Positions 2,099 to 62,890 of a stretch of DNA of 64,000 bases are shown in pieces; within the stretch, counting starts at the first letter, position 1, and each line of letters begins with the position of its first letter. The notes under the pieces are model-generated. The model ran no database searches, was not told the DNA's origin, and was given only the letters and a program-made list of their open reading frames with translations. Made by a program: the position numbers and the translations under genes. Source of the stretch: an uncultured Bacilli bacterium (GTDB lineage Bacteria; Bacillota_I; Bacilli_A; RF39; UBA660); NCBI GenBank assembly GCA_947628235.1, contig CANQZC010000006.1, positions 8,727-72,726 on the forward strand. The letters are read 5' to 3'.

Positions 2099-2099
2099 T

Positions 2100-3065: not shown

Positions 3066-3083
3066 TCTTAGCCTTCTTTCTTT

Positions 3084-3298
3084 TAGATAACAAAAAAACT
3101 CCTTATAGTCTTCTATAAGGAGCGTATAAACGCGGTACCATCCTACCTTTTCACTTTCTTGGATAACGGATCTCTCCGGATAATTCTTTCGATATCAGCT
3201 CCTAGGTAGTAATCATAAAATTTCTTGATTAGGCTCTCACCAATTCCTAACTCGCTTCCAAGTCTCTTTTATCATCGTGTCCTATTCTTCGCTTTCAA
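3084..3298 (-). promoter_or_regulatory. T-box riboswitch leader (tRNA-Thr sensing expected) with intrinsic terminator 3084-3115, preceded by a sigma-A-like promoter (GTGACT...TGcTACAAT at about 3306-3334)
   Basis: Minus-strand RNA contains AGGATGGTACCGCG (T-box consensus GGGTGGNACCGCG) at 3124-3137, then hairpin CTCCTTATAGAAGACTATAAGGAG + U7; AGAGACU region may hold an ACU Thr specifier. Confidence 0.7.
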
Positions 3299-3343
3299 CA
3301 CTTCTATTGTAGCACATTCTTTTTCATAAGTCACTAATTTTTC

Positions 3344-4246: not shown

Positions 4247-4248
4247 GT

Positions 4249-10993: not shown

Positions 10994-11001
10994 ATTATCA
11001 C

Positions 11002-11709: not shown

Positions 11710-11748
11710 AAAAAACCTTCTTTCTATAAGATAAGAAAAGAGAATCCC

Positions 11749-12573: not shown

Positions 12574-12585
12574 ATCTTTCCTCTT

Positions 12586-12786
12586 CTATTCTTCTGATAC
12601 ACGAACTAAATCTTTGGCAATTTCTTCTAAAGAACGACCGATTTCTTTTTTAGAAACATATTCTGATTCTTTCATTTGATAATATTCTTTTTCTTTCATT
12701 TCTTTCGCTCTTTTAGAAACAATGTTTACTAACAAATATTTAGAACCAACCTTTGTTAATAATTTATCGATAGATGGATATATCAT
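12586..12786 (-). CDS. rpoZ: DNA-directed RNA polymerase subunit omega
   Basis: MIYPSIDKLLTKVGSKYLLVNIVSKRAKEM matches omega N-terminus; start at internal ATG 12784-12786 with AGGAGA RBS (the track ORF extends 11 codons upstream). Confidence 0.75.
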   Translation of the reverse strand: MIYPSIDKLLTKVGSKYLLVNIVSKRAKEMKEKEYYQMKESEYVSKKEIGRSLEEIAKDLVRVSEE

Positions 12787-12867
12787 AATTTCACTCTCCT
12801 TAGTATTAGGATATCCCATCTAAGTGTAAACTTCAATAATTTTACAAGAAATTGACAAAAGTTTACA

Positions 12868-14142: not shown

Positions 14143-14191
14143 AGTATCACCATATTCATTATATCAAATACAGGGAAAAAAAGAAAGCAAT

Positions 14192-15019
14192 CTATTGCTT
14201 TCGAGAAAAGTTAGATGCCATCTTTTCTTGATACTCTTCCCAAGGAATTGTTAGTCCATAAAGAAGTTTTTGAGAATCATCTAACGAAGAGACGAATGCC
14301 AAAGTATTTTCTAGGCTGCCACCATGATAAAGAATATACTGTTCGAATGGGCCAGAAAAAATACCTTTCTCTTGACTCGTTAAAAATCCATCAGGAGTTC
14401 TAAAATCGTATCCTTTTTGATAAGTTTCTTTAAGACATTTTTCTAGATAAGTAAAAAGATTAGAATCTACTTTAGGAAGATAAGAAAGGACTTCCATAAT
14501 GGCTTCGATAGAATGAATTTCGGCTAATCGCTCGAATGGACTATAGTCATAACTAACACTAGACTCTGGTCCATCAAAGGTAACCATCTTAAGAATGCTA
14601 GACTCCATATCTGTTCCTAATGCGACTTGCTTTTTCTGATAAGCATGTTCTAGTTCATGAAGAATAGACTGAGTAATTAAAGCATTGATTCCTAGAATAG
14701 TGTCTGAAATATTTTCTTTATCTACTTCTGATTTTCGAAATTGATGTATATTTTTTTCGTAAATCACAATTCTTTTGGTTTCCGCTTCATAACCAGCTTG
14801 ACCAAAAAGTCCTGCTAATCCATCCATATACTTTTGATACTCAGATTCTTCTTCCTTTCCTTTCGGAATAACAAAAATCTCTTGCACATAGTCTTCTAAC
14901 CCATTTTCTTTTACTACTATAGAAATTAATTCTTTAAAAAACGATTCTCCCACTATTTTATTTTGTGCCTGATACTCTTTTAGTAACGCCGCAATTTTTA
15001 TATTCATTTCTTTTCTCAT
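14192..15019 (-). CDS. hypothetical protein with HExxH (HELEH) motif, possible metallopeptidase-like
   Basis: 275 aa; SILHELEHAYQ; no other recognisable domain. Confidence 0.45.
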   Translation of the reverse strand: MRKEMNIKIAALLKEYQAQNKIVGESFFKELISIVVKENGLEDYVQEIFVIPKGKEEESEYQKYMDGLAGLFGQAGYEAETKRIVIYEKNIHQFRKSEVDKENISDTILGINALITQSILHELEHAYQKKQVALGTDMESSILKMVTFDGPESSVSYDYSPFERLAEIHSIEAIMEVLSYLPKVDSNLFTYLEKCLKETYQKGYDFRTPDGFLTSQEKGIFSGPFEQYILYHGGSLENTLAFVSSLDDSQKLLYGLTIPWEEYQEKMASNFSRKQ

Positions 15020-33265: not shown

Positions 33266-34477
33266 CTACATTGTAAAATATTTGATTTCAAAAGTCGTTC
33301 CCTTCTCACTAGAGCTTACCAAAATTTTTCCATTTTCCTCTTCGATAATTCTTTTGGATAAAGCAAGTCCAATTCCCACACTATCTGCATTCGCGTTTTC
33401 GCCTCGATAAAACCTTTCAAAGATATGTGGTAAATCTTTTTTCGAAATTCCCTTTCCAAAGTCTTCTATCGTTACTTTCGTATAGGCATGGTTTTGAGCA
33501 TAGGTAATTTTTACCGTACCACCTTCTAAAGAATGGTCAATCGCATTCTTTAAGATATTGGTAATCGCTTCTTTTTGCCAGTGTCGATCACAAGAAAGAG
33601 TAATTTCTTTTGGTCCTTCTATCAAAACTTTAATATTCTTTAAATCACAAAGTGTAGATACATTTTTTAAAGTATCTTCTAATAGACTTCGCAGAGAAAC
33701 TTTTTCTTTTTGAAAAGATATCGTATTCACATCAAATCGAGATAACTTTAAAATATTTTGAATAAAGAAATGAATATTAGAAATTTCTCTTTTAATATCG
33801 TGAATAAAGTCTTCTCTCGTTTCTAAATCCATCGTAGGATCATCTATCATATTATCTAAAATAACTAAAATAGAGGTAAGTGGTGTTTTTAACTGATGAG
33901 AAATATCCTCCAAAGATTTTTTTAACTCTTTCTTATCTTTCAAAGAGTTTTCAGCACTCTCTTTTAGCATCACGGTTGTTTTATAAACTTCCGTTTTTAA
34001 AATGGAAAGTTCATCTTCCGAAATTTCTTGAATATGTAAGGAATAATTTTTTCGATTGATTTCTTCGATATATTTGGTAATCTCTTCAATTTCTTTATCT
34101 TTTTGATGGTTATAGCGTAAAAAAAGGAATGCCAAGAAGAAGGTGAATAAGAAGAAAAGAATTCCATCTACGAGAAAGAAAAAATCATACTTTTTCTCGC
34201 TCTCTAGAAATAGTTCCTCTTTCGATAAATTAATTCCATACATCTCAAAAAAGGAATCACTCTTTCCTTCCTCATTTAAAATTTGAATGAGTTCTCTATC
34301 CGTTACTTCTGGATAATGTTTTTTTATCTGAAACAGGATTTGGGAAAATTTTTCATTATAAGTCTTGATATAGTGCCGATACTCAAAATAATGAAGAAAG
34401 GAAAATAGGAAGAAGAAAAGAAGAAAAAGAAGGAAACTTAAGATAAGACACTTTTTTAATTTTTCTTTATTCTTCAT
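33266..34477 (-). CDS. sensor histidine kinase (Bce-module-associated)
   Basis: Two TM helices, H-box SHQLKTPLTSILVILDNM, ATPase G-boxes (GIGLALSKRIIEEENG). Confidence 0.85.
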   Translation of the reverse strand: MKNKEKLKKCLILSFLLFLLFFFLFSFLHYFEYRHYIKTYNEKFSQILFQIKKHYPEVTDRELIQILNEEGKSDSFFEMYGINLSKEELFLESEKKYDFFFLVDGILFFLFTFFLAFLFLRYNHQKDKEIEEITKYIEEINRKNYSLHIQEISEDELSILKTEVYKTTVMLKESAENSLKDKKELKKSLEDISHQLKTPLTSILVILDNMIDDPTMDLETREDFIHDIKREISNIHFFIQNILKLSRFDVNTISFQKEKVSLRSLLEDTLKNVSTLCDLKNIKVLIEGPKEITLSCDRHWQKEAITNILKNAIDHSLEGGTVKITYAQNHAYTKVTIEDFGKGISKKDLPHIFERFYRGENANADSVGIGLALSKRIIEEENGKILVSSSEKGTTFEIKYFTM

Positions 34478-35123
34478 CGATACGATACCCTATTCCTTTC
34501 AATGTCGTAATAATATCTGTTCCTAGCTTTGCACGAATTCTTTTAAAATAAACCGTTACCGTATGATCATCCACATCATTTCCTGTCCATTCCCAAATTT
34601 TATCTAAAATCGTTGTTCTTCTTACTACTTTATTGCGATTTAAAAATAATAGATGTAATAACTTTAGTTCTAAAGAAGTCAATTCAATACGATTTTCTCC
34701 TTTATAAACAATCATTTTATCCATATCAAAAGAGATATCTTGAATGCGAACGATACTTTTCTTCTCATGACGAAGACCAATCTTATGAACACGAGCTAAT
34801 AATTCTTTGGTACTAAATGGTTTGGTAAGATAATCTTCTGCTCCCATATTGAGTCCTTTTACAATATCGTCTTCTTCCTCTTTCGCCGTTAAGAAAATCG
34901 TCGGAAGTTTTCTTTCTAAAAGAACTTCTTTCAAAAAAGTAAAGCCATCGCCATCTGGAAGAGTCACATCCAGAATAACAACATCTATAGAATGATTCTT
35001 CTCTAAGAAAGACATTGCTTCTTCTAACTTTCCAGCATAGAAAAACTCATCTCCACTTTTTGAAAATGCATAATGAAGCCCTTTTACTATCGTCAAATTG
35101 TCTTCTATTAACAATACTTTCAT
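34467..35123 (-). CDS. OmpR-family response regulator
   Basis: Receiver (VILDVTLPDGDGF) plus winged helix (GIGYRI). Confidence 0.9.
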   Translation of the reverse strand: MKVLLIEDNLTIVKGLHYAFSKSGDEFFYAGKLEEAMSFLEKNHSIDVVILDVTLPDGDGFTFLKEVLLERKLPTIFLTAKEEEDDIVKGLNMGAEDYLTKPFSTKELLARVHKIGLRHEKKSIVRIQDISFDMDKMIVYKGENRIELTSLELKLLHLLFLNRNKVVRRTTILDKIWEWTGNDVDDHTVTVYFKRIRAKLGTDIITTLKGIGYRIDEE

Positions 35124-35168
35124 TCGTTTCTCCTTTTCTTCATTATACCATAAAAAGGCTTTTCGCCT

Positions 35169-37832
35169 TTATATGTTTTCATTACGAATTGTCTCTATCG
35201 TATTTTGTTTTTGAATCTTCTTCATAGAATAACGCATCAATGCCGCAATTAATAAGAAGACTGCTACTATGGAAATCAAAATTGCTTGAACCGGTAAATG
35301 ATAAGCATATTCCGTATTTCCAATAGCTCTATAAATGAGATAAGAAAGTCCAACACCGATTGGAATTCCTACGAAAAGAGCCTTACAGCCAATAAAGATC
35401 GTTTCTAGATGAATCATGTGGCTAAACTCTTTTTTTGTCATTCCAATAGATTTTAACATGGCAAACTCTTGTTTTCGAAGTTCCATATTCGTCGTAATGG
35501 TATTAAAAATATTGGTAATTCCAATAAGAGAAATAACAATAATAAATCCATAGAGGAAGATACCAATTAAAGTAAATAAATTTCTCATGATACGAACATT
35601 TTCTTCTTGATTATCTACTGAAAAGTTCTCAATATCTTCAAAATAAACTTCTAGTTCATCTTGTAATCTATTAGCGTCTTTCGAATCGATATAGACAACA
35701 ACATGATGAAGTAAATCTAGTTCTTTCATATATTCATCACTGACAATAAGATATGGACTATGATTTCCATTTACATTTTCTTTCATTGAAAAAGGAACTT
35801 CTTCACTAACGGCCCCGATTTCAATAGAATTCTCTTTTTCATCCAAGAACACAGAAATTTTATCTCCTGCTTGATAGTCAAAAACCCGCATCCGATAACG
35901 AGTCTCTTTCGCACTTTCCTCATCATAAATAGAGAAAGTAGTCGTATCTAAAAGAATTGCTTTTTGCTTCATTTGCTTAGGATCTAGTCCTAATTTTTTT
36001 AAATATTTCTCATATTGATATTCTCCTAAAGAAGCAATCCATACTTGTCTTCGATTTCTTTCATCCTCTTCGATTTGTAGAATTTTTTGATACTCTGGAT
36101 TGTACTTTGGTTTTTTCGCCTCGGCATAATAAGAACTGGTAATCGCATAATCCTTAATATTTGAAAAATCTCCTACCGCTTCTACTTTGGCATAAGTCTC
36201 TTCATCAATAGACGCTACGGCAAAAGAAATATTATAGTCAGACAAAGAGATTTCTTGTTCAAGTTCTTGAAACGCTAATGACATAAAAGAAGAAAGAGCG
36301 ATAAAAGTAAAGACGGAAACGACAATAGAAATGACTGTCGTTCGATATTTCTTTTTATTTCGCTTTTGATTTTTAAAAGAAATAACGCCACCAACACCAA
36401 AACACTTCTTTATGAGTTTTGGGGTATGTAATTTTTTAGATTTTAATTCAATATTCGCACTATTTCGAATCGAATCGATAGGAGAAATTCGAGAGGCTCT
36501 TCTAGCGCTTCGAAAGGCTGAAAAATAAATGGTAATAATTCCAAGAAGAACCGCTACAATAAGCGCTACCCAAGAAAAACGAAAGAGAAGAAAGTTTTCA
36601 TAGGTAACCATATCTTGTAAAAAATAATTACTAATAAAAACTAAGATATAGGAAGCTAAAACACCAGAGAGTAATCCTAAAGGAATACCAATAAGTCCTA
36701 GAATCGTTGCTTCATAAAAAACATTTTTCTTAATTTGTTTTTTCGTAGCCCCGATACTTCTTAACATTCCATACTGTTTTGTCTTTTCGGTTATCGAGAT
36801 ATCGAAACTATTTTTAATACAGAAGACAGAAGTAAAAACAATAATTCCAAGAACAATCACAACAACTGTTCCTAAACCACCTATCGCACTATTTTGAAAA
36901 GGATTTGTCTCTAGAAAAACAAGATAGCTATTATCCATGTAACGGTACTTTGCCTTTTGTAATTCTAAATAAATTCTATTCGTATCTTCCTCGTTTAAGA
37001 AATCAGCCGTAAGGTATTGTTGAAATAGATCGGCATCAATTCCTAAAATACCCGCCGTTACTTTAAAGTAATCTTTTACCCCTTCTTTCGTATACCTAGC
37101 ATAGATATCTACTTTTCCTTCTAATTTCGTATCATCTAAAAGAGTAACTAAAGTATATCCTGGAGCAGAATAATCTTCTATGTTGTTAGCCGGTCTTTCT
37201 ATTACTCCTACAATTTTATAAGTTTTCGTAGTGGTATTTTGAATCGTTTCTTCTCGCTCAGAAGAACTTTCATCACTAGGAAGAAACCTATCTGCTTGCG
37301 TTAAAACCGTACCATCCGCAGCCACTCTTGTTCCTACCTCTAAAGTAAGAGTATCCCCTACTTTATATTTCACTCTTCCATTTGTCTCTAAATGACTAGG
37401 GATGACAACTTCCTCTTCCCTTTGTGGAAGTCTTCCTTCTATTAATTTTAAAGAAAGATTTTCTATTGCCTCTTTCGTAAAGGCTTTAATATAAAGATAT
37501 GGTTTATATTCATTTTGAGATTCTTTTAAAGAAGCATATCCTATTCCTTGCGTCAAATAAAGACTTTCTAACTTCCGATTGTTTTTAAAATCTTCTAAGT
37601 TCTCTACTGGAATATCATAAAAAGCGGTATGAAAGTTTCCTTTCTGTGTCGTTTCAAAGGTAATTAAAGACGCAATCGTACTAGCATACATCGTAGAAAC
37701 GGCTGCTAATAACGCCACAGACAAGAGAATTCCAATGATGGTAACAACCGTTCTTTTCTTATTTAATTTTAAATTTTTAATCGTCAATTTATTTAGTAAG
37801 TTCATATTATGCCTCCTGAACGATTTTTCCAT
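35169..37832 (-). CDS. ABC transporter permease, FtsX/MacB-like with large extracellular domain
   Basis: 887 aa; FtsX-type TM bundles at both ends; 26-nt overlap with the ATPase gene. Confidence 0.8.
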   Translation of the reverse strand: MEKSFRRHNMNLLNKLTIKNLKLNKKRTVVTIIGILLSVALLAAVSTMYASTIASLITFETTQKGNFHTAFYDIPVENLEDFKNNRKLESLYLTQGIGYASLKESQNEYKPYLYIKAFTKEAIENLSLKLIEGRLPQREEEVVIPSHLETNGRVKYKVGDTLTLEVGTRVAADGTVLTQADRFLPSDESSSEREETIQNTTTKTYKIVGVIERPANNIEDYSAPGYTLVTLLDDTKLEGKVDIYARYTKEGVKDYFKVTAGILGIDADLFQQYLTADFLNEEDTNRIYLELQKAKYRYMDNSYLVFLETNPFQNSAIGGLGTVVVIVLGIIVFTSVFCIKNSFDISITEKTKQYGMLRSIGATKKQIKKNVFYEATILGLIGIPLGLLSGVLASYILVFISNYFLQDMVTYENFLLFRFSWVALIVAVLLGIITIYFSAFRSARRASRISPIDSIRNSANIELKSKKLHTPKLIKKCFGVGGVISFKNQKRNKKKYRTTVISIVVSVFTFIALSSFMSLAFQELEQEISLSDYNISFAVASIDEETYAKVEAVGDFSNIKDYAITSSYYAEAKKPKYNPEYQKILQIEEDERNRRQVWIASLGEYQYEKYLKKLGLDPKQMKQKAILLDTTTFSIYDEESAKETRYRMRVFDYQAGDKISVFLDEKENSIEIGAVSEEVPFSMKENVNGNHSPYLIVSDEYMKELDLLHHVVVYIDSKDANRLQDELEVYFEDIENFSVDNQEENVRIMRNLFTLIGIFLYGFIIVISLIGITNIFNTITTNMELRKQEFAMLKSIGMTKKEFSHMIHLETIFIGCKALFVGIPIGVGLSYLIYRAIGNTEYAYHLPVQAILISIVAVFLLIAALMRYSMKKIQKQNTIETIRNENI

Positions 37833-38478
37833 CTTCCAGTTTGATAATACGATCTGCTATCTTTGCAATCTCCATATTATGAGTAATCATAATAATGGTC
37901 TGTTTCAATTCTTTATTTGATTTTTGAAGAAGAGAAACAATTTCATCACTTGCTTTAGAATCGAGGTTACCGGTTGGTTCATCGGCTAGAATAATCGTTG
38001 GATTCGTAATGAGTGCTCGACCGATACTAGTTCGTTGTTGTTGTCCTCCCGATAATTCATTTGGTAAATGATTTTTTCTTTCATCTAGTCCTAATAGTTT
38101 TAACATTTCTTCTAATTTTTCTTTATCTACTTCCCGATTGTCTAAAGAAAGCGGTAAGGTAATGTTTTCTTCTACATTTAAAATAGGAATTAAATTATAA
38201 AATTGATAGATAAGTCCTACTTGTCGTCTTCGAAAGATTGCTAATTTGTCATCATCAAAACAAAAGATATCTTTTCCGTCAATCCATACTTTCCCACTCG
38301 TTGGCCGGTCCACTCCTCCAATTAGATGAAGTAGCGTGCTTTTTCCAGAACCGGATGCTCCTACAATAGCAACAAACTCCCCTTTTTCAACAGAAAAAGA
38401 AACATGGTCTAAGGCAACTACTTTGGTAGAACCTTTTCCATAAACTTTGGTTAAATTTTCTACTTTTAAAATTTCCAT
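37807..38478 (-). CDS. ABC transporter ATP-binding protein (MacB/BceA-like)
   Basis: Walker A GASGSGKST, signature LSGGQQQR, Walker B ILADEPTGNLD. Confidence 0.9.
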   Translation of the reverse strand: MEILKVENLTKVYGKGSTKVVALDHVSFSVEKGEFVAIVGASGSGKSTLLHLIGGVDRPTSGKVWIDGKDIFCFDDDKLAIFRRRQVGLIYQFYNLIPILNVEENITLPLSLDNREVDKEKLEEMLKLLGLDERKNHLPNELSGGQQQRTSIGRALITNPTIILADEPTGNLDSKASDEIVSLLQKSNKELKQTIIMITHNMEIAKIADRIIKLEDGKIVQEA

Positions 38479-43667: not shown

Positions 43668-44219
43668 ATGAAAGTAAAAAATAAAAATATTTCTTCATTA
43701 AAAACAAGAGAAAAAATCAAAAAAGCATTTGCTTCTCTCATGGTAGAAAAAAAAGATTTAAGTAAAATTACAGTGACTGATTTAGTCCAGATTGCCGATA
43801 TCACGAGAGGTACTTTCTATACTCACTATGAAAACATTTACGAGGTAGCAAAAGATATTCAAGATGAAACTTTTGAAGTTCTTCTTCATAATATTCATGA
43901 ACTAGAAGAAGTAGAAAGCATGGACTCTTATTTTCAAGAAATTTTTTCTTATCTAAAAGAAAATGAAGAGATGTACTCTATGGTTTTATCTAGTAATACA
44001 CCTCTTTTCTTTACTAAAAAATTAGATATTTTAATGAATGAAAAACTATTAGAAACTTTTTCTAAAAAGAAGATTCCCAACCTAGAACTTACCATTTCTT
44101 TCTTTGTCGATGGTTGCATGAGTCTTGTTATTAAACACTTTCGAAAAGAATCTCCCTATTCTTTAGAAGAGATTCAATACTATATTCAAAATTTATTTCA
44201 ACATTTATTTTTACAATAA
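43668..44219 (+). CDS. TetR/AcrR family transcriptional regulator
   Basis: HTH ITVTDLVQIADITRGTFYTHY; start at ATG 43668 after AGGAGA RBS and TGtATAAT; divergent from the MMPL gene. Confidence 0.8.
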   Translation: MKVKNKNISSLKTREKIKKAFASLMVEKKDLSKITVTDLVQIADITRGTFYTHYENIYEVAKDIQDETFEVLLHNIHELEEVESMDSYFQEIFSYLKENEEMYSMVLSSNTPLFFTKKLDILMNEKLLETFSKKKIPNLELTISFFVDGCMSLVIKHFRKESPYSLEEIQYYIQNLFQHLFLQ

Positions 44220-44221
44220 AA

Positions 44222-44239
44222 AAGGCTGATTATTCAGCC
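44222..44239. terminator. palindromic bidirectional terminator (AGGCTGATTATTCAGCCT) flanked by A/T runs
   Basis: Perfect 7-bp stem; T-run on both strands. Confidence 0.6.
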
Positions 44240-44240
44240 T

Positions 44241-44272
44241 TTTATAATTCAATCAATTCGTATTCTCTAGAA
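44241..44272. repeat. 32-nt direct repeat copy 1 (TTATAATTCAATCAATTCGTATTCTCTAGAAC)
   Basis: 31/32 identical to 47866-47897; each copy lies next to a different palindromic hairpin. Confidence 0.8.
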
Positions 44273-44298
44273 CAAGACCAATATAAATATTTTATCTC

Positions 44299-45282
44299 CT
44301 ATAAACTAAACTCTGTTATTTTAGTACCATCTTTCTTTGTAATTAAGTAGTTCTTTCCTTTTTTGAATACATAAGTATCATCATAAATATAATAGGTATT
44401 ATATTTGGCATCCATATATTCTTTACCATTTATGTCAATCAAAACAATATAGGTTCCATCATCTTTTTTTACTTCTGCAAAAATCCTTTCTGGATTTTCA
44501 TCATCAAAAATGAAATTACTATACTTTCCTGGTTCTATTACATAATCCCCGTTTGTATCAATTAAACCAGTTCCTGTTTCATTTCCTACAACAGCATAGC
44601 CAAAACTATTGAATTCGTGCTTTGTATCAAAATTTTTATCTTCAAATATAGGTTTATTATCTTTATAGTATGTTGACTCATAGTAGCTTTGATATAAAGT
44701 TATTTCAGGCTCTTTTTCTTCCAGAGCTTCTACTTCATTACCCTTTGTATCGATATAGATGGTTTCCCCATATGCTGGCATAACTTTTGCAATACCATTT
44801 TTAAAGGAATTACATTCATAGAATGTTCTACCAAATAATTCATTACCTTCTTTATCAATGTAGACATTTTGGGTTGTTCCAGCTGTGGAAACACAAGCCA
44901 TTCCCTCACTAAAATTAATTCTATAACTCCTCTCATAAGTATAGCCAGATGCGTACTCATATTTAGGTTCAATAACAAACTCATTTTTATTATTGATATA
45001 TCCTACTTTTCCATCTTTTACAACTGCCGCTAAACCATCATAGAAACCATAAGCAGCATCATATTGTAAATCTATTACTAATTTTCCATCAGCATTTACA
45101 TAGCCCCATTTAGCATCATTATACAAAGTTCCTGTATATACTGGATATAAATTTTCATTGACATTAGAAGAAGATTCATTTGAATCTTTCAGACTGTTGA
45201 CAAACAAAAAATTTGAAAACAATCTGAGACTATCATTTCTGATAGTCTCATATAGATCATTTATCATTTTCATCGTCACCAA
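44299..45282 (-). CDS. WG-repeat (KWG-like beta-repeat) containing protein
   Basis: Recurrent WGY.N..G..VI.P.YD.A..F.DGLA.V segments. Confidence 0.65.
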   Translation of the reverse strand: MVTMKMINDLYETIRNDSLRLFSNFLFVNSLKDSNESSSNVNENLYPVYTGTLYNDAKWGYVNADGKLVIDLQYDAAYGFYDGLAAVVKDGKVGYINNKNEFVIEPKYEYASGYTYERSYRINFSEGMACVSTAGTTQNVYIDKEGNELFGRTFYECNSFKNGIAKVMPAYGETIYIDTKGNEVEALEEKEPEITLYQSYYESTYYKDNKPIFEDKNFDTKHEFNSFGYAVVGNETGTGLIDTNGDYVIEPGKYSNFIFDDENPERIFAEVKKDDGTYIVLIDINGKEYMDAKYNTYYIYDDTYVFKKGKNYLITKKDGTKITEFSL

Positions 45283-46021
45283 ATAAATTAAATGAATTTA
45301 TTTCACCAGTCTTTTGTCCACTTCCATTTTTAAATTCGGTAGTTTTGATGCCACCACCCCAGTCGTAAGTTGTTGAACTACCTTTATAATTTCCAAATTG
45401 ATCAGTATAATGAACAGTTTTGAAAAAAGGTTTGGACTTTTTATTCTCGTGTTGATCATTATTATCATTATTATTTTTGTAAATATTTATATTACTACCA
45501 ACTGCATGTTCGATTGGTTCTCCTTTATAAGAAATAAATAAAAATGGTAGTGTCAAAATAAATGAAACAATTATAGATGTAATAATACCTTCTTTTTCCA
45601 TTAATGACATAACGAAAAACGCTATCATAATAGAATACATAAAACATTTACCGGCTAAATATCTATCCATTTTTTGCTTATATTCTACATTATATTTTAC
45701 TCTATATTTCTGATTCACTTCATCAGCATATGGATGCTTAACTACTCCATCATCTGGAACATATTTAAAAACTTGTGTTTTAATCAGGATAAATTGAAGA
45801 ATTCTGTTAAAAATTTTTGAAATAATATAACCAATGATTATATAAACATAAAATACCAATATATTCATTTTCTCATCTTTACTTGAAAATCCTGCAATAG
45901 CAATGGTTAAAAATCCAAATAGGCAAGACAAAAAGCAGAATATTAACCGTTGTTTCAAATTGTATTGATTATATTCATTTTTATACTTGTTTTCCTTTTT
46001 ACTTAATTTCATATATAACAT
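45257..46021 (-). CDS. hypothetical membrane protein (4 TM) with Gly/Asn-rich C-terminus
   Basis: 254 aa; 26-nt overlap with downstream WG-repeat gene (translational coupling). Confidence 0.5.
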   Translation of the reverse strand: MLYMKLSKKENKYKNEYNQYNLKQRLIFCFLSCLFGFLTIAIAGFSSKDEKMNILVFYVYIIIGYIISKIFNRILQFILIKTQVFKYVPDDGVVKHPYADEVNQKYRVKYNVEYKQKMDRYLAGKCFMYSIMIAFFVMSLMEKEGIITSIIVSFILTLPFLFISYKGEPIEHAVGSNINIYKNNNDNNDQHENKKSKPFFKTVHYTDQFGNYKGSSTTYDWGGGIKTTEFKNGSGQKTGEINSFNLFGDDENDK

Positions 46022-46120
46022 CCCCTACTCCATTATAAATAAAATTTTTACCAAGAAGAATTACATACAATATACTCAATATTTTCTTTTTCATATCACT
46101 TTACTCTCTTTCTCTTTATA

Positions 46121-46160
46121 CTTTTATTATATATATATATATATATAAAGTCAATATGAA
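46121..46160 (-). promoter_or_regulatory. promoter copy 1: TTGACT - TT(TA)10 - overlapping TATAAT
   Basis: Minus strand TCATATTGACTTT(TA)10ATAA; -35 TTGACT at 46149-46154, (TA)10 at 46128-46147; about 100 nt upstream of 45257..46021. Confidence 0.55.
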
Positions 46161-46247
46161 TAAAAAAATGGAAAAGAAAAAGACTATCATTTCTGATAAT
46201 CCTTTTGTTATTAATTTTCTTCTAGTTCATGTTTAAGATAAAGTATA

Positions 46248-47273
46248 CTATTCCTCTAGTTCGTCCCATTCCTTTTCTGTTGATTTTTCAAATGAATTAG
46301 TGCGAATATTAAACTTGTAATAGTCATACTCATTGGTTTTCTTATCGACAATATATAGAATCATAGTATCATCATGCCATATACTATCAGATACCTCAAA
46401 GCCATAAATGCTTATTGATATTTTAGAATCTAATTCTTCTTTTATCTTATCAAAATCTTCTTGTTTATTAATATCATAGACTTTATATAGTTCGTCTAAA
46501 GCATCATTATAAACCCCTTTTAAAAATTCATATTTATCTGTTACCTTTTTCTCTTTTCGAATTTTATCATAAGAATCATTATCATATTTAAATTGTGAAG
46601 TTATAAAATCTTTTGCTTGTGGGAACTCTTTATATGATGTTTCTGCTGCTAGCATTAATGAGGTAGAAAAAACAGCACTATCCAATAACAATATGAGAAC
46701 ACTTGCAGCCATTAAAGTGAAATCGAACCCATGTTCTCTTATCTCATTTATTATATTAATAATAATTAATGGGATAAAAATTCCATATAACATTCTTGGA
46801 ACATATCCATAATAAATTAGGTTTAGGAATATTGAATGTGGAGGATTAATAAATGAATTTATTAAGAATACAATTAATATTATTGCCTCAATCATTACTA
46901 TTCTTTTGCGTTTAATAGACTTAGTATCTTCATTTTCCAACGCTTTATCCTGCTGCTTATTATTCTTAATTCTTATTTTTTTACCATAAAATTTAATATA
47001 CTCGCTATCTTCTTGTTTCTTTTTCGTAAATAAATTTTTTATTTTTCCTAAAACATCTTTAAACTCAATAAAAGTTTGATTACCAAACATAGCATATCGA
47101 ATAAACCTCATTAGTTCAATGGAAGAAATTACTATAACAATAATTGCTTCAACATATAGGTCTGTAGCACCTGCCATCTCTAATACCAAAAAATAGACTA
47201 TAAGAGGAAATACTTCATCTAGGCCAACTCCAATTGTTAAAAAAACGATAAATAAAAATAGAAACATTCCCAT
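46248..47273 (-). CDS. hypothetical membrane protein (N-terminal TM domain, acidic soluble C-terminal domain)
   Basis: 341 aa, ATG start, 4-5 TM helices. Confidence 0.5.
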   Translation of the reverse strand: MGMFLFLFIVFLTIGVGLDEVFPLIVYFLVLEMAGATDLYVEAIIVIVISSIELMRFIRYAMFGNQTFIEFKDVLGKIKNLFTKKKQEDSEYIKFYGKKIRIKNNKQQDKALENEDTKSIKRKRIVMIEAIILIVFLINSFINPPHSIFLNLIYYGYVPRMLYGIFIPLIIINIINEIREHGFDFTLMAASVLILLLDSAVFSTSLMLAAETSYKEFPQAKDFITSQFKYDNDSYDKIRKEKKVTDKYEFLKGVYNDALDELYKVYDINKQEDFDKIKEELDSKISISIYGFEVSDSIWHDDTMILYIVDKKTNEYDYYKFNIRTNSFEKSTEKEWDELEE

Positions 47274-47336
47274 AATTACATACTCCTAACTTTATAAGTT
47301 TATACTTCCTATCCCTTTGAGGCTAATTACTTTTTA

Positions 47337-47376
47337 TACTCTTATTATATATATATATATATATAAAGTCAATATG
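47337..47376 (-). promoter_or_regulatory. promoter copy 2: TTGACT - TT(TA)10 - TATAAT (duplicate of 46121-46160)
   Basis: Shared ~45 nt with copy 1 including (TA)10 at 47346-47365; about 65 nt upstream of 46248..47273. Confidence 0.55.
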
Positions 47377-47413
47377 ATAATTTTAAAATAGCATAAAAAA
47401 ATACTAGCTAACA

Positions 47414-47698
47414 CTAGTACTTTTTATTATTCATATATTGTTTAAGTGATAAACTTGCTTTAAATGTTACCACCCTTTTTGGAGAAATTTGAATAATATC
47501 CCCGTTTCTAGGATTAATCCCTTTTCTTTCTTTTCTATCATTCACTTTAAATGTACCGAATCCCGTTAGGACAATTTCTTCTCCATTATCTAATTCATTT
47601 CTTATCGTATCAAAAATAGCATTATATATGGTATCAACATCTTTTGATTTTATTTTAGCTGTTTTAGCTACTTTATCTATTAGTTCTGTCTTATACAT
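47414..47698 (-). CDS. HU/IHF family DNA-binding protein (additional HU paralog)
   Basis: 94 aa; GFGTFKV..R.ER.GINPRNG..I.I....V.FK; own TTGAAT-17-TAAAAT promoter upstream. Confidence 0.85.
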   Translation of the reverse strand: MYKTELIDKVAKTAKIKSKDVDTIYNAIFDTIRNELDNGEEIVLTGFGTFKVNDRKERKGINPRNGDIIQISPKRVVTFKASLSLKQYMNNKKY

Positions 47699-47848
47699 AC
47701 ATAATTTCCTCCTTCAGTAAATTACTTTCTTTGTTAATATATTTTATCAGCATTATGTTTTTTATTCAACTATAATACAAACATATTTTTCTTTTTTGAT
47801 TGTTCATTACACCTTTAAAAGATTATTCTTTCATAAAATCACAAAAAA

Positions 47849-47866
47849 AGACTGAAGAATCAGTCT
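47849..47866. terminator. palindromic terminator (AGACTGAAGAATCAGTCT) at DUF362 gene end
   Basis: Perfect 7-bp stem + A/T runs; overlaps stop codon by 1 nt. Confidence 0.6.
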
Positions 47867-47897
47867 TATAATTCAATTAATTCGTATTCTCTAGAAC
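47866..47897. repeat. 32-nt direct repeat copy 2 (overlaps the last 10 codons and stop of 47866..48738)
   Basis: TTATAATTCAATTAATTCGTATTCTCTAGAAC, 31/32 to copy 1. Confidence 0.8.
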
Positions 47898-48738
47898 CCA
47901 TTCCTAACTCACTTGCTGCTTCAATTGTATGTACTCCATGTCTTGAGTTAATTCTTTCTAGTAAATGATCACGCCCTGGATCATCAGATTTTGTTACTAA
48001 ATCGATACAAGCTTGATCGATTGCTACTGGATCTAGGCTTGCTAGAATACCAATATCTTTCATACAAGGATCTTCTGCTACATTACAACAATCACAATCA
48101 ACAGACATATTTGCCATTACATTCACATAAGCAATATTTTTTCCAAAATACTTTGTTACAGAAGAAGCAGCATCTGCCATTGCCTCTAAGAAACTATCTT
48201 GATCTTGATGGAACATATCTTCATAAGAGCCATCATTTCCACAACAGTGGATATATCTTTTTCCATGCCCTGATGCTACTCCAATAGATAATTGTTTTAA
48301 AGCTCCACCATATCCTCCCATAGGATGTCCTTTAAAATGAGATAATACTAACATAGAGTCATAATTTTCTAAATGTTTTCCTACATAATTCTTTTTGATG
48401 ACTTTACCATTTGGAATGTCTAATACCATTTCTTCAGTAGCGTCCATAATATCTACTGTAAAATTTTTTGACCATCCATGATCTTCCATTAACTTCGTAT
48501 GTTTTTCTGTTGTATCTCTAGCGCCATCATACGCTGTATTACATTCTACAACCGTTCCTTGAACATGTTCTATCATTGGTTTCATAAATTCAGGACGAAG
48601 ATAATTTTGATTTCCTTCTTCTCCTGAATGTACCTTAACGGCTACTTTGCCATTTAATTGTACTCCTAATGCGTCATAAACTTTGACTACATTTTCAGGA
48701 GTAATCTCACGAATCAAATATACTTTTGCTTTTTCCAT
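47866..48738 (-). CDS. DUF362-like protein with Cys-rich C-terminal region
   Basis: 290 aa; ...VDCDCCNVAEDPCMKD... cysteine cluster; family call from memory. Confidence 0.5.
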   Translation of the reverse strand: MEKAKVYLIREITPENVVKVYDALGVQLNGKVAVKVHSGEEGNQNYLRPEFMKPMIEHVQGTVVECNTAYDGARDTTEKHTKLMEDHGWSKNFTVDIMDATEEMVLDIPNGKVIKKNYVGKHLENYDSMLVLSHFKGHPMGGYGGALKQLSIGVASGHGKRYIHCCGNDGSYEDMFHQDQDSFLEAMADAASSVTKYFGKNIAYVNVMANMSVDCDCCNVAEDPCMKDIGILASLDPVAIDQACIDLVTKSDDPGRDHLLERINSRHGVHTIEAASELGMGSREYELIEL

Positions 48739-50688: not shown

Positions 50689-51663
50689 CTAGTTTTGCAT
50701 TCTAATTTGTTGCCCTTCTATCAATGGATAATTGACTAGCGTTTCTCCTTCTAGATTCTCTTTATACATATCTACACCAGTAATCTGACTATTCTCATAA
50801 GTACGATAGTAATAGATTCCTTTATCGACATTGACACAAGAACTATAGATAGTAATTTCATATTTTCCTTCGCCCATATGAACACATCCTCTTTGTTGTT
50901 CTACGGAAGTTAAAATATGAAAAAATTGACTGATACTAGCAGATTCTGAATCATCAGATAAAGAGTTCATCTTCGTAAAAGTAGCTTTTACAAATCTAGA
51001 TAGAGAAGATAGATCTCCAGGAAGTCCCATGGCTCCCATACCTCTACTATAAGCATCGAATTCTAATTTTTTAGAAAAATGATTTTCTACTTGTTCAGTA
51101 GATAAATACATATAATTATTTAAATTGAACATATGAATATCAAAAGTTGGATTATTCGTTAAAATACCAACCGGATTATCATATACCTTTAATCCGTCTT
51201 TGACACTTTCTACAGTAATAGAATGTTCCTTATCGGCAATAATCCAATGAAGTGGAGAAGCTGGTAATTGTTCACTGAATGGGATATTCACTAAATTCAT
51301 TTTCTCTAGTAATTTTTTAGCATCTTCAACGGTTTCACATTGCGTCAATATCCAAGGAATAAATTCAAAAGGTGCGACATTATCTTTTCCCTCTACTATC
51401 TCTTTATAATCTGCATTCTTAGGAAAATTAAGGCCTGCCATACCAAGTCCTTTTTCATTTACAGCATCATAATAAAGAGGATAATCTTCACAAACATAAG
51501 CCATTCCTATCATCGCATAATGAGTATCCATCTTTCCCATTTTTCGGAAAGTAAAAGGATAATTTCTAGGCGTAATGGTAACGGTTTCTTGATAAGAATA
51601 TTCCAAATCTAAGTTTCTTCCAAAATAATGATCTTTAGTAGCGTAAGTAGCTGCTGTACACAT
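50689..51663 (-). CDS. choloylglycine hydrolase family Ntn-hydrolase (bile salt hydrolase/penicillin V acylase)
   Basis: MCTAATY... (Cys2 nucleophile), ...FGRNLD..., ~324 aa. Confidence 0.85.
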   Translation of the reverse strand: MCTAATYATKDHYFGRNLDLEYSYQETVTITPRNYPFTFRKMGKMDTHYAMIGMAYVCEDYPLYYDAVNEKGLGMAGLNFPKNADYKEIVEGKDNVAPFEFIPWILTQCETVEDAKKLLEKMNLVNIPFSEQLPASPLHWIIADKEHSITVESVKDGLKVYDNPVGILTNNPTFDIHMFNLNNYMYLSTEQVENHFSKKLEFDAYSRGMGAMGLPGDLSSLSRFVKATFTKMNSLSDDSESASISQFFHILTSVEQQRGCVHMGEGKYEITIYSSCVNVDKGIYYYRTYENSQITGVDMYKENLEGETLVNYPLIEGQQIRMQN

Positions 51664-57775: not shown

Positions 57776-58351
57776 TTACTTGTTCTTTTCGGCAGTTGAC
57801 ACTTCCGTAACAATCTCATTTATCGGTACATCTGTAGGACTAGTAGGAAGAAAATTATCTTTTAAAATTTGTTCTTCAAAACAGACAGCGATACTTTTCG
57901 CACTTACTCCTTTTAAGAAACGATCATAATATCCTTTGCCATATCCTAATCGATTTCCGTTTTTATCAAAACATATCCCTGGAACAATAATCAAATCAAA
58001 CATTTCTTTCGGAAGAAATTTTTCTTCTTCTCCGATTGGTTCTTCTACGCCAAGAGAACTTTTTTGAAAAGGTTCTTGCAAAGAAGAAATACGATAAAAC
58101 TTTAATTCATTGCCTACTACTTTAGGAAGTCCTACTACCTTTCCACTTTGAAAACTACTTTCCATCAGTTCTTGCGTATCTACTTCCGTACCAAAACTTT
58201 TATAGAAAGCAATTACTTTTGCTTGTTGATAATCTTTCCTATTCTTAATCTTTTCCGTAATTAAATGGGATTTTTGCTTAGGAGATTTCACATTTTTACG
58301 AATTTCGAGATACTTTTGTCTAAGTTCTTCCTTGGAAAAATAAGAAGTCAT
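57776..58351 (-). CDS. 5-formyltetrahydrofolate cyclo-ligase
   Basis: 191 aa; K..R..LR.... N-terminus and GxGxGYYDR C-terminal motif (GYGKGYYDRF). Confidence 0.75.
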   Translation of the reverse strand: MTSYFSKEELRQKYLEIRKNVKSPKQKSHLITEKIKNRKDYQQAKVIAFYKSFGTEVDTQELMESSFQSGKVVGLPKVVGNELKFYRISSLQEPFQKSSLGVEEPIGEEEKFLPKEMFDLIIVPGICFDKNGNRLGYGKGYYDRFLKGVSAKSIAVCFEEQILKDNFLPTSPTDVPINEIVTEVSTAEKNK

Positions 58352-59214
58352 TTTTTCTCCTTCTTCTTTTGATTTTTTCTTCCTGCTTTGATAATCTTAC
58401 GGTTAGACTTTTCCTTGATTTCTTCTATTTTCCGTTGAAATTTTTCTTCCGCATGAGCAATCTTTTCTTCTGTTTTCTTCTTAATTTTCATTTGTTTTTC
58501 ATTATATTTTTGTCTTTCTTCCTCAACTCTTCCTTTTACTTTTTCTAAGGCAGTGCCAATATGTTGAAAGTTAGGGTATGCCGAAAATAATCTTCGTTTT
58601 AATCTACCACCGGTTCTAATTGTTTCTAAGACCTTTTTAGAAATTTCCTCGGTATTATCCTTTTCAAATAGTTTTACATCATTTCGAATATGCGATAATA
58701 CCCGGAAAGATATAATATTATCTGTAAGAAAAATAAGAAGCAAAAGAACGGTCGAAAAAGATAACCCAAAAGAAGAAAAATGACTATAAAAATCTAGTAA
58801 GACAGGATTGATAAAATGAACTACGAAAACGCCACCGAGGCCAAAAGGAATTAACGTATAAAGAGAAATTCTTCCATTGACATTAAACTTATCATTACTA
58901 TAATCCCACCATCTAGCATGAAATATTTTCTCCATCAAATAACTTGTTACATACTCTAGAATAGCGCAGATAATCATTCCTAAAAAGAAAAGCGCTACCA
59001 TATCATCTCTATATTTATGAAGAAAAAGAATCATCAAAATAGAACCCCATCCATAGATAGGACAATAAGGGCCAATTAAAAAACCACGGTTAATAAATTT
59101 CTTTTTCTCAAAGAGTTGAAGAAGAACTTCCGCACACCATCCAAAAAAAGAATAGGTAATAAATAATAAGAAAAATATTTGTAATTTATGAATCATAAAA
59201 ACCTCTACTAACAA
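58348..59214 (-). CDS. hypothetical polytopic membrane protein with lysine-rich coiled C-terminus
   Basis: 288 aa; GW/GP-rich TM region. Confidence 0.45.
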   Translation of the reverse strand: MLVEVFMIHKLQIFFLLFITYSFFGWCAEVLLQLFEKKKFINRGFLIGPYCPIYGWGSILMILFLHKYRDDMVALFFLGMIICAILEYVTSYLMEKIFHARWWDYSNDKFNVNGRISLYTLIPFGLGGVFVVHFINPVLLDFYSHFSSFGLSFSTVLLLLIFLTDNIISFRVLSHIRNDVKLFEKDNTEEISKKVLETIRTGGRLKRRLFSAYPNFQHIGTALEKVKGRVEEERQKYNEKQMKIKKKTEEKIAHAEEKFQRKIEEIKEKSNRKIIKAGRKNQKKKEKK

Positions 59215-60854: not shown

Positions 60855-60958
60855 TAATAAGACACTTGTCTTTTTATTACAATTTTAGTATAATCTTTAC
60901 GAAAGAAAAATACAATCAACAATTTATAGACGATTGTCCAATTAAAAGGAGTGAATAT

Positions 60959-61501
60959 ATGAATACACCAAATAACAAACGAAGAAAAGAAACCAGAGAT
61001 AAAATCAGTAAGGTGTTTATCACTTTATTACAAACCAAAGAAATCACAGAAATATCTGTTACTGATATTTGTAAACTTGCCAAAATAAATCGTTCTACTT
61101 TTTATGTAAATTACCTCGATATATATGATTTAGCAGACAAGATTGGACAAGAGTTAGAGCGAGATGTTTTTTCTTTATATCAAGAAGAAAGAGAAACAAA
61201 TCATAATTCAAACGATTTTTTAAAACTATTTAAGCATATAAAAGAGAATCAAATATTTTATAAAACCTATTTTAAATTGAAAATGGATCAAAACCTTATC
61301 ACACAAGAATACGATTATCATTTATCAAAGGAATTATATGATGATAAATATATCGATTATCACATGGAATTTTTTAAGGCAGGACTAAATGCTATTATTA
61401 AAAAATGGCTTGATAATGGTTGCCAAGAATCACCTGAAGAAATAGAAAGTATATTAAAAAGTGAATATGCAAATAAAAAAAATGTCAAGAATGAAACTTG
61501 A
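60959..61501 (+). CDS. TetR/AcrR family transcriptional regulator (paralog of 43668..44219)
   Basis: HTH ISVTDICKLAKINRSTFYVNY; ATG 60959 after AAGGAG RBS. Confidence 0.8.
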   Translation: MNTPNNKRRKETRDKISKVFITLLQTKEITEISVTDICKLAKINRSTFYVNYLDIYDLADKIGQELERDVFSLYQEERETNHNSNDFLKLFKHIKENQIFYKTYFKLKMDQNLITQEYDYHLSKELYDDKYIDYHMEFFKAGLNAIIKKWLDNGCQESPEEIESILKSEYANKKNVKNET

Positions 61502-61507
61502 TATTTT

Positions 61508-62890
61508 TTATTGCTTTGTTCTTAGCTCCCATCTTAATAGGAATATTCCCATGAAAAAGGCTAAGATATCTGCAATTATCGCACTCCATAACATCGTTAT
61601 AACACTATGACTAAGCATTGCAATGAAAATAATAGCAGGAACAAAAAAGAGAACATCCCTAGAAAGAGCAAGCAAAGTAGATTTAAAACTAGCTCCCATA
61701 GATTGTAATAAAATAGATAATGATTTAATCATACAAGTAAAGATAATTCCCCCTAAGAAAATTCTTAAACAATATCTAGCATACTCCATATATTCTAAAG
61801 AATTTTCTTTGCCAAAGATACTAATAATGAAAGTTGGACAAAGTTCAAAAAGAAGAAATGCGATAGAACCAATCACAAAGTTAATCCCTAAAATATATTT
61901 TATGGTATCTTTTACTCTTTCAATATTCCCTGCTCCCATATTGTATCCAATAATAGGCATACCTCCTAAAGAAACACCAATTACAATAGATATTACGATA
62001 CCGAATACTTTCATACAAATACCAATGACGGCAAGTGGTGTTACTACCCCATAGGCTACCTCTCTACTAGATAATGTCATATATCCATATTTACCAACCA
62101 AATTATTAGCAACTGCAATAATGATTACAATAGCTAATTGAGTAATAAAAGACGCTAATCCTAAAGACACAACTTTCTTACATATTTTAGCATCCAACTT
62201 AATAGATTCTTTTTCTATCCTAAAAGATTTTGCTTTCCTCAAATACCAAATACTAATTAAGAAAGTAATGATTTGTCCAATGACTGTTGCAATCGCTGCT
62301 CCTTTGACACTCATTCTAAAAACAAAGATAAAGATGGCATCTAAAATAATATTAGAAATCGCACCAACAACCGTTGCAACCATCGCGTATTTGGGACTAC
62401 CATCACTTCGAATAGAAGCATTTAATCCTTGTCCAATGATATAAAAAGGTAAACCACAACAAATGATTTGAAAATAGTCTATCGCATATTGATAACATTT
62501 TACTTCTTTTGGATTTCCTCCAAAAAGATGTAAGATAGGCTTTTGAAATAGAAATCCTAAAACCGTTAAGAAAAGAGCGATGATAATCAAAAGAATAAGA
62601 CCATTTCCAATAGAATGATTTGCATCTTCTTTTTTCTTAGCTCCTAACGATAAACTAAAAAGAGCTGCAGCGCCATCTCCTATTAACAAAGAAAAAGCAA
62701 GAGCAATCACAGTAAAAGGATAAACGATATTCGTTGCTGCATTACCATACTCCCCTGCTTCACTCCATCCTATAAAGATTTGATCAGCAATATTATAAAG
62801 AGCCGCTACAATCATACTAATAACACAGGGAATAGCAAAGTTTCGAATTAATTTTGCAACGCTATCTTTCCCTAAATCTAATTTTTTCAC
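61508..62890 (-). CDS. MATE family efflux transporter
   Basis: 460 aa, 12 TM; N-terminal LIRNFAIP...AALYNIADQIFIG MATE signature; GTG start with AGGAGGG RBS. Confidence 0.85.
   Translation of the reverse strand: MKKLDLGKDSVAKLIRNFAIPCVISMIVAALYNIADQIFIGWSEAGEYGNAATNIVYPFTVIALAFSLLIGDGAAALFSLSLGAKKKEDANHSIGNGLILLIIIALFLTVLGFLFQKPILHLFGGNPKEVKCYQYAIDYFQIICCGLPFYIIGQGLNASIRSDGSPKYAMVATVVGAISNIILDAIFIFVFRMSVKGAAIATVIGQIITFLISIWYLRKAKSFRIEKESIKLDAKICKKVVSLGLASFITQLAIVIIIAVANNLVGKYGYMTLSSREVAYGVVTPLAVIGICMKVFGIVISIVIGVSLGGMPIIGYNMGAGNIERVKDTIKYILGINFVIGSIAFLLFELCPTFIISIFGKENSLEYMEYARYCLRIFLGGIIFTCMIKSLSILLQSMGASFKSTLLALSRDVLFFVPAIIFIAMLSHSVITMLWSAIIADILAFFMGIFLLRWELRTKQ

Follow-up and report, generated by a model that had tools for sequence, protein, structure and literature searches.

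A small cassette of genes lies between a gene for a DUF362 family protein and a gene for a TetR-family regulator in the 64-kb stretch of DNA analysed here (the window), which comes from an uncultured gut bacterium of a Bacilli lineage. Read on the minus strand from DUF362, the cassette encodes an HU-type DNA-binding protein, a 341-amino-acid (aa) membrane protein, a 254-aa membrane protein and a WG-repeat (WG_beta_rep) protein. The allele with these genes (filled) is 3,624 nucleotides (nt) longer than an empty allele identified on other contigs, and a 32-nt sequence from the end of the DUF362 gene is found at both of its ends. We favor, with a probability of about 0.55, the interpretation that the cassette is an accessory islet that lacks a recombinase, is located at the terminator between the convergent DUF362 and TetR genes, and was moved by homologous recombination of the host.

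The 32-nt sequence (32-mer) TTATAATTCAATYAATTCGTATTCTCTAGAAC has exactly two matches in the window, one proximal (within DUF362) and one distal (next to TetR). They have a T and a C, respectively, at position 13, and are identical at 31 of 32 positions. No match was found in any of 100 shuffled versions of the window, and none is expected by chance. This repeat was described in the original prediction, and is as described except that the distal copy starts one base further to the right (44242-44273). The proximal copy was said to be the last 10 codons and stop of the DUF362 gene. It is indeed the end of that gene, but the codon count was wrong, as the copy consists of two nucleotides of a glycine codon, nine codons and the stop. 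The distal copy was correctly said to be intergenic yet to encode the same tail: it has the TetR stop on one side and the WG gene stop on the other, SREYELIEL and its stop can still be read from it, and its sole difference is a synonymous change of TTA to TTG. Upstream of the two copies only 11 of 40 positions match. A leftover of a second DUF362 gene was considered as the source of the distal copy and rejected, as nothing upstream of its inner boundary (GTTCTA) resembles DUF362, either in the window or in the second form of the cassette described below.

The DUF362 protein has more than 8000 homologues. The exact 32-mer (with C or T at position 13) has one match in 185,579 GTDB species genomes, and none in viral contigs or in JGI metagenome contigs. 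Thus, the possibility that it is a widespread repeat, raised with the original prediction as an observation that would count against an inserted cassette, was rejected. The single genome is a metagenome-assembled genome (MAG) from rabbit, also of an uncultured Bacilli bacterium (CANROB010000019; loci L005 and L006), which represents a second species.

The exact TetR protein of the window is encoded on four metagenome contigs, two of them empty (L001 and L004) and two filled (L002 and L003). In L001 and L004 the TetR stop is followed by a hairpin (hairpin 1), one copy of the 32-mer (T variant) and then directly by the DUF362 coding sequence; on the TetR side these contigs share 99.4% identity with the window across 1.5-3.5 kb. 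In L002 and L003, which are independent assemblies, hairpin 1 is followed by the C-variant 32-mer and the WG gene, so that the distal junction of the window is shared. An empty site with a single repeat copy, for which the original prediction had suggested a search, is therefore present in this species, and the idea of an inserted accessory block is supported in the form of an insertion/deletion polymorphism. The islet is present in some strains of the species and absent from others. The proximal junction, with a hairpin loop of the window type, recurs in another window-like, filled contig (L021). In this contig (815-835, equivalent to window 47887-47907), 21 nt between two GAG triplets are also deleted in frame, so that seven DUF362 codons (LGMGSRE) and 11 nt at the start of the proximal 32-mer are missing; the coverage of L021 is only ~2x, and the deletion may be an error. 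The window and the related loci are all metagenome assemblies, several of them with ~2-3x coverage according to their record names.

The differences between filled and empty alleles are concentrated close to the junction. The 430 nt that lead up to the junction contain 8 single-nucleotide polymorphisms (SNPs; 43844-44254), whereas there are 12 in the 3,084 nt before them, and the SNP density near the junction is thus five-fold higher (Fisher p = 0.0016). On the DUF362 side, L004 has 4 differences in 109 nt. Divergence between empty and filled alleles is thus 2-4% at the junction, versus 0.4% further out. The insertion or deletion sits within a diverged haplotype block that ends inside TetR, and the SNP at position 13 is therefore merely part of that haplotype. 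Because such a block is what exchange through long flanks leaves behind, it favors host homologous recombination. The filled contig L002 matches the window exactly in TetR and at the junction, and its SNPs form clusters only inside the 254-aa gene (16 in 172 nt, 45571-45742) and the WG gene (10 in 300 nt, 44619-44917). These patches are localized hypervariable or recombined segments of the cargo, and the islet varies in a mosaic fashion from strain to strain.

A palindromic hairpin adjoins each copy of the 32-mer, as had been predicted. The two were thought to be distinct, but their alignment (AAGRCTGA-loop-TCAGYCTT) shows two versions of a single terminator, with a compensating change from G-C to A-T. 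They differ at ~5 of 24 positions, and the loops differ between AAGGCTGA...TCAGCCTT in hairpin 1 and AAGACTGA...TCAGTCTT in hairpin 2. Folding energies are -12.9 and -14.2 kcal/mol for hairpin 1 on the two strands and -9.8 kcal/mol for hairpin 2. The homology between the two ends of the cassette spans ~55 nt, with 97% identity in the gene tail but ~75% in the hairpin. The pattern of a conserved core with unconserved flanks, on which the original prediction relied, is therefore real, and the two flanks have different distributions. The hairpin 2 motif AGACTGAnnnnTCAGTCT lies 3' of DUF362 in all other lineages examined (L013/L014, L015-L018 and the rabbit MAG). It occurs once in the window, and across the loci only after DUF362 and at the distal copy of the MAG. 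Hairpin 1 is confined to the species of the window, where it adjoins only TetR, in filled and empty alleles alike. In the filled allele, the DUF362 gene thus now has the kind of tail and terminator that other lineages have. This distribution places the recombination joint in, or at the edge of, the 32-mer. With the joint to the chromosome at the last 32 nt of DUF362, the native tail and the native terminator (hairpin 1) have been displaced to the far end of the cassette.

The gene order in the MAG is DUF362, HU, 341-aa protein, 252-aa protein, WG protein, 141-aa lipoprotein, amidase, CmpB and ABC transporter, and the TetR/MMPL gene pair is missing from the locus. Flanking sequences of the window and the MAG are 75-79% identical, whereas identity is 93-97% for HU, 94-99% for WG, and 99-100% over a segment of ~2.1 kb (window 45296-47411, L006 7520-9633) that includes both membrane protein genes and both of their promoters. 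As cassette sequence that is 99-100% identical across species is set in flanks of 75-79% identity, the cassette has moved horizontally, in a recent exchange between the two species. The ~2.1-kb segment looks like a very recent recombination patch within the islet.

The two forms of the cassette are homologous up to the WG stop and no further. In the MAG, the 141-aa lipoprotein gene, which is absent from the window, and a 131-nt spacer precede the distal copy GTTCTATCAGAATACAAGTTAGTTAAATGAAGACTGATGATTCAGTCTTTTTTTGT. Its local alignment with the proximal tail and hairpin has a score of 68, compared with a maximum of 32 for shuffled sequence. The hairpin and T-run of this copy are identical at 27 of 27 positions and its tail is ~70% identical, with indels; the window shows the reverse. 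The conserved segment is therefore the tail in one species and the hairpin in the other, which argues against a fixed core and for a crossover position that varies within the ~55-nt patch. The inner boundary of the repeat is the same GTTCTA in both forms, and the sequences just inside it differ. Three other possible traces of the history of the locus were considered. A remnant of the MAG TetR 3' end after the distal hairpin was rejected, as the score (33) was not significant given a shuffle maximum of 44. The increase in DUF362 identity to the MAG along the gene, from 66% to 92%, was rejected as a breakpoint because the same gradient is seen in comparison with L013, and so it reflects conservation of the gene. 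A resemblance of the linker at 44274-44298 to the start of the 141-aa gene is a by-eye suggestion only, and we do not claim it.

Other lineages were also compared at this position. L013 and L014 belong to a more distant one (~72-83% DNA identity). L013, a contig of 53 kb, has the empty order of cyclophilin-like protein, DUF362, TetR, MMPL and amidase, with hairpin 2 present. In loci L015-L018 (MAG CANRDU01, 10868-14470), the interval between DUF362 and TetR holds genes for a 538-aa protein, a 149-aa protein and choloylglycine hydrolase (CBAH). A search for a remnant of the DUF362 tail beside this gene set gave none (score 30, shuffle maximum 34). The window orthologue of the choloylglycine hydrolase (50689-51663, 76% identical) is located beyond DUF362, on the side away from TetR. 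In this group, the interval between DUF362 and TetR is a hot spot for rearrangement. Across species, the 3' half of DUF362 is ~91% identical and its tail and terminator match at 30-32 of 32 positions, compared with 67-72% identity for TetR. Because these segments are better conserved than TetR, exchanges between species would be forced into them.

Under the favored interpretation, the islet would be gained, exchanged and lost by host homologous recombination acting on incoming DNA, with no need for a dedicated site-specific recombinase. One arm of homology would be the DUF362 gene. For transfer within the species the other arm would be the TetR flank. Between species, TetR is either missing or too diverged for this, and the second arm would be the ~55-nt copy of tail and terminator at the far end of the islet. 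With DUF362 on one side and this copy on the other, the two arms would match one continuous sequence in a naive genome. The direct repeats would also permit precise deletion. The first duplication of the tail was probably produced by an illegitimate one-sided join, or by a Campbell-type single crossover, 32 nt before the DUF362 stop.

Some considerations weigh against this interpretation. A site-specific mechanism directly predicts that the GTTCTA boundary falls at the same nucleotide in both forms of the cassette, whereas homologous recombination accounts for it only through common ancestry of the distal copy. An arm of 32 nt is short for RecA-dependent exchange, and the transformability of these uncultured hosts is presumed. 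The inspection covered 64 kb of the genome, and a recombinase acting in trans is possible. The comparison on the DUF362 side is based on 109 nt of empty alleles. Finally, the junctions are backed separately (the distal one by L002 and L003, the proximal one by L021), and no independent contig spans the cassette.

Searches for mobility machinery gave consistently negative results. No recombinase was identified among the four cassette proteins using Pfam, PADLOC and PHROGs, and no integrase, resolvase or transposase family among the other 47 window open reading frames (ORFs) of at least 120 aa that were scanned, a set that left out four flank genes (33266-38478, including 37807-38478) and short ORFs nested on the opposite strand. 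On L006 and L013, three of these flank genes have counterparts with HisKA, response-regulator and FtsX domains. Of the inverted repeats listed, the 25 longest include none that would pair the ends of the cassette. With no transposase, no such end-pairing repeats and a duplication that is 32 nt long, a transposon or insertion sequence was rejected. The core-site consensus of integron attC sites is GTTRRRY. The boundary GTTCTAG does not fit it and no integrase was identified among the scanned window ORFs, and an integron gene cassette was therefore rejected as well. The cassette has no match in phage and plasmid collections, none of the 26 related loci has an integrase at the DUF362 end, and a circular junction (WG, tail, hairpin 2, HU) was not detected among the contigs examined. 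Reading of the 32-mer revealed no dyad arms beyond the small palindromes TCTAGA and AATTAATT. Thus, the original prediction was right that no recombinase is visible in the block and right about its content (WG protein, two membrane proteins with duplicated promoters, and HU). Its comparison of the repeats to attL and attR sites is a fair analogy; the recombinase mechanism it implies is unsupported, given the variable core, the haplotype block and the lack of an element with a cognate integrase.

Two explanations nevertheless involve a recombinase. In one, the cassette is a decayed or satellite element, similar either to a cis-mobilizable element (CIME) or to the integrative elements that use the host Xer system (IMEX). 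The 32-nt tail, with or without the hairpin, would be the att core for a tyrosine, serine or Xer-type recombinase encoded elsewhere, and insertion would rebuild the DUF362 3' end, as happens when islands integrate at tRNA genes. In favor of this explanation, the cassette forms of the two species have the same inner boundary and lie at the same gene end, the pattern at position 13 is compatible with a crossover within positions 1-12, and the anatomy matches the published description of CIMEs (PMC5704250). However, no integrase is encoded in the cassette or in the scanned ORFs of the window, the cassette has no remnants of an integrative and conjugative element (ICE), an integrative and mobilizable element (IME) or a phage, and no cognate element occurs in the 26 related loci. 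Neither the 32-mer nor the cassette is matched in phage, plasmid or viral contigs. The switch of the conserved segment from tail to hairpin between species is unexpected for a fixed core, and the 32-mer lacks arms with dyad symmetry. The L015-L018 lineage has other genes between DUF362 and TetR with no remnant of the tail, and the diverged flanking haplotype indicates exchange through long flanks. We consider this explanation unlikely. A related and more doubtful idea is that tail and terminator form a functional attachment site, and the cassette a minimal mobile module that relies on a recombinase encoded elsewhere, either Xer-like or supplied by a helper element. Such a module would rebuild its target gene, bring its own terminator and move phase-variable membrane protein genes between species of gut Bacilli.

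The cassette could also be ancestral, with no recent insertion in this species and with the empty alleles formed secondarily by deletion, through recombination or slippage between the 32-nt repeats. Deletion between direct repeats yields exactly the empty allele observed (hairpin 1, one 32-mer, DUF362), a second species has the cassette in the same place, and the 21-nt in-frame loss in L021 indicates that small deletions do occur in the tail. However, the more distant L013 lineage has the empty arrangement, the G+C content of the cassette is lower, and its 99-100% identity across species contrasts with flanks of 75-79%. The empty alleles are 2-4% diverged right at the junction versus 0.4% further out, which means that they did not arise recently by deletion from a haplotype like that of the window. 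A non-coding tail that is 31/32 identical, next to clearly diverged hairpins, also fits poorly with a single old duplication, and overall we find an ancestral cassette improbable. Much less credible still is an assembly artefact, in which metagenome sequences would have been wrongly joined at the 32-mer that they share, making one of the two forms, filled or empty, a chimera. All loci are indeed metagenomic, several at ~2-3x, and two related species with the same 32-mer co-occur in the sample set. Yet the distal junction (WG linker, C-variant tail, hairpin 1) recurs in two further independent assemblies, and L021 repeats the proximal junction, including a hairpin loop like that of the window. 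Empty alleles pair hairpin 1 with the T variant 13 nt away, a combination absent from filled strains, and have flank SNPs of their own. The SNP at position 13 leaves exact stretches of 12 and 19 nt, and the k-mers usually used by assemblers are longer, which also counts against a chimera.

The islet can be compared with several described systems. A CIME is a cis-mobilizable element, a decayed ICE or IME that keeps attL and attR, with examples in Streptococcus thermophilus and S. salivarius (PMC5704250). The islet resembles a CIME as a block of a few kb without integration or transfer genes, bounded by direct repeats of which one is the 3' end of the target gene, and with a single-copy empty site. 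It differs in that it has no ICE or IME remnant, that no element with a cognate integrase was identified in related loci, that the 'core' differs between species, and that the flanking haplotype data indicate homologous recombination. IMEX such as the CTX phage and the gonococcal genetic island integrate at dif using the host XerCD recombinases. The likeness is an insert without a recombinase between direct repeats of ~28-32 nt; here, however, the repeat is the tail of a protein-coding gene and lacks the 11-6-11 dyad of dif. By eye, the 32-mer matches 15 of 28 positions of what we take to be the Bacillus subtilis dif sequence, which is unconvincing in AT-rich DNA, and the dif of the host itself may differ.

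Islets gained by homology-facilitated or flank-mediated recombination have reportedly been studied in Acinetobacter and pneumococcus. In homology-facilitated illegitimate recombination, an illegitimate join forms beside a homologous anchor during DNA uptake (PMC3240628). Such islets have in common with this one a one-sided gene anchor, an insert without machinery, diverged flank tracts and an insert that is mosaic among strains. The difference is that the far joint lies here in a copy of the anchor tail of 32 nt (up to ~55 nt) rather than in a microhomology of 3-10 nt. The islet would therefore carry a portable second arm, and its ends are flanked by long direct repeats. We conclude that it is a new instance of a small, horizontally exchanged accessory islet without a recombinase of its own, a kind that is already known. 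It provides a small and clean example of gain and loss of accessory genes in an uncultured gut bacterium, with both alleles, a cross-species copy and the recombination scar visible. If the tail does serve as a portable homology arm, a cassette without mobility genes could re-insert into naive genomes. This would be relevant to the spread, within gut communities, of strain-level differences in surface and membrane proteins.

Table 1. Features of the islet and its flanks in the 64-kb window, in order of position.
Feature	Position	Strand	Remarks
TetR-family regulator, distal conserved flank	43668..44219	+	Pfam TetR_C_8, E = 1.6e-10; convergent with DUF362 in the empty allele
Hairpin 1, AAAAGGCTGA-ATAA-TCAGCCTTTT	44220..44243	.	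Terminator scan, 10 pairs; native convergent terminator of TetR/DUF362
Distal, displaced copy of the DUF362 tail (C variant)	44242..44273	-	Non-coding; SREYELIEL* still readable
Linker of 25 nt, WG stop to distal tail copy	44274..44298	-	Inner edge of the insertion; DUF362 homology ends abruptly
WG-repeat protein gene	44299..45273	-	Pfam WG_beta_rep, E = 1.2e-24
Terminator-like hairpin after the 254-aa gene	45225..45250	-	11 pairs; -19.4 kcal/mol
254-aa membrane protein, no known family	45257..46021	-	Sub-threshold LptF_LptG match only
Promoter TTGACT-17 nt-TATAAT with (TA)10 spacer, 5' of the 254-aa gene	46126..46154	-	11/12 consensus positions
341-aa membrane protein, near-orphan	46248..47273	-	No Pfam, PADLOC or PHROG match
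Second (TA)10 promoter copy, 5' of the 341-aa gene	47344..47372	-	Inside the 51-nt repeat
HU-type DNA-binding protein, first cassette gene	47414..47698	-	Pfam Bac_DNA_binding, E = 3.7e-29
Hairpin 2, AAGACTGA-TTCT-TCAGTCTT	47848..47867	-	Terminator scan, 8 pairs; now the terminator of DUF362
Proximal, functional copy of the DUF362 tail (T variant)	47866..47897	-	2 nt of Gly codon, 9 codons (SREYELIEL) and stop
DUF362 gene, proximal conserved flank	47866..48738	-	Pfam DUF362, E = 4.3e-50; 3' end is the duplicated target

The G+C content of the cassette is 26.4%, compared with 31.6% for the window, in keeping with horizontal transfer. The HU gene of the cassette is the only one in the window. The 341-aa protein is found in only 4 clusters among 5.8 billion proteins. 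The 254-aa protein, too, has no PADLOC or PHROGs matches. The two membrane proteins are not paralogues, as there is no homology between them. Exact-protein look-ups of the window DUF362, HU and WG proteins returned no record. A defence-system or phage origin of the cargo was rejected, as there is no PADLOC match, the PHROGs matches are only to generic HU, and no plasmid or phage DNA matches. A scan of 40-52 kb with Rfam, at E values up to 0.1, identified no known RNA element.

A 51-nt repeat with a promoter is present 5' of each of the two membrane protein genes, with 94% identity between the copies. The two (TA)10 promoters are the joint best promoter matches in the region. At the same promoter sites, the number of TA units varies from 8 to 10 across contigs (loci L005-L012 were compared). 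With 10 units the spacer has the optimal length of 17 nt, and 9 or 8 units, as in other contigs, reduce it to 15 or 13 nt. The promoter of the 341-aa gene has 9 units in the other species and in other contigs. The counts can also differ between the two promoters of one contig (9 and 8 in L009). This variation resembles slipped-strand phase variation of both membrane protein genes. According to the passage of PMC2651432 that cites van Ham 1993, phase variation of Haemophilus influenzae hifA/hifB involves a promoter spacer with (TA)9-11. That passage describes the same placement of a (TA)n tract between the -35 and -10 hexamers and a strain-variable number of units. The putative switch here differs from the one in that description in having two separate unidirectional promoters, orphan membrane proteins as products and an uncultured gut Bacilli lineage as host. 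The two near-orphan proteins with (TA)n promoters are candidates for phase-variable surface or phage-interaction functions.

The WG gene of the window lacks the lipoprotein signal peptide and the promoter that are present in the other species. The MAG orthologue is a lipoprotein that starts MKKKILSILLIGVLVMGLAGCG and has its own upstream region. In the window (45160-45296, compared with L006 9667-9800), ~135 nt with the WG promoter and signal peptide are swapped for ~105 nt, and the replacement sequence includes the terminator hairpin that is also present downstream of the 341-aa gene. The window WG gene may be non-functional, or its product no longer exported. This latter copy, at 46181-46201, is 95% identical to the hairpin that follows the 254-aa gene (Table 1). 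Within the leader of the 254-aa gene (window 46022-46125, L006 8835-8930) is a short ORF that begins MKKKILSIL, resembles a lipoprotein signal and overlaps the annotated start out of frame. This ORF may represent a leader peptide, or else an ancestral N-terminus that has become frameshifted.

Relatives of the WG gene with lipoprotein or membrane protein genes as neighbours occur elsewhere in related MAGs, for example upstream of the rplK operon in L022. The presence of these relatives at other loci suggests that the cargo genes are generally accessory. In L025 (MAG CANRGA01, 1701-5033) we identified four consecutive lipoprotein genes (343 aa, 172 aa, WG and 140 aa). They share a 99-nt repeat, 62-78% identical, that spans the signal peptide and lipobox, and they look like a family of variable surface lipoprotein genes. 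The genes adjoin an IS110-family transposase (111-1364), and nothing ties this transposase to the window locus. Elsewhere in the window (58348-59214 and 60866-62890) there is another CmpB-like gene, as well as another TetR_C_8 regulator beside a convergent MatE efflux gene. This set echoes the TetR/MMPL pair and CmpB near the islet, so that paralogous regulator-exporter pairs are found less than 20 kb apart.

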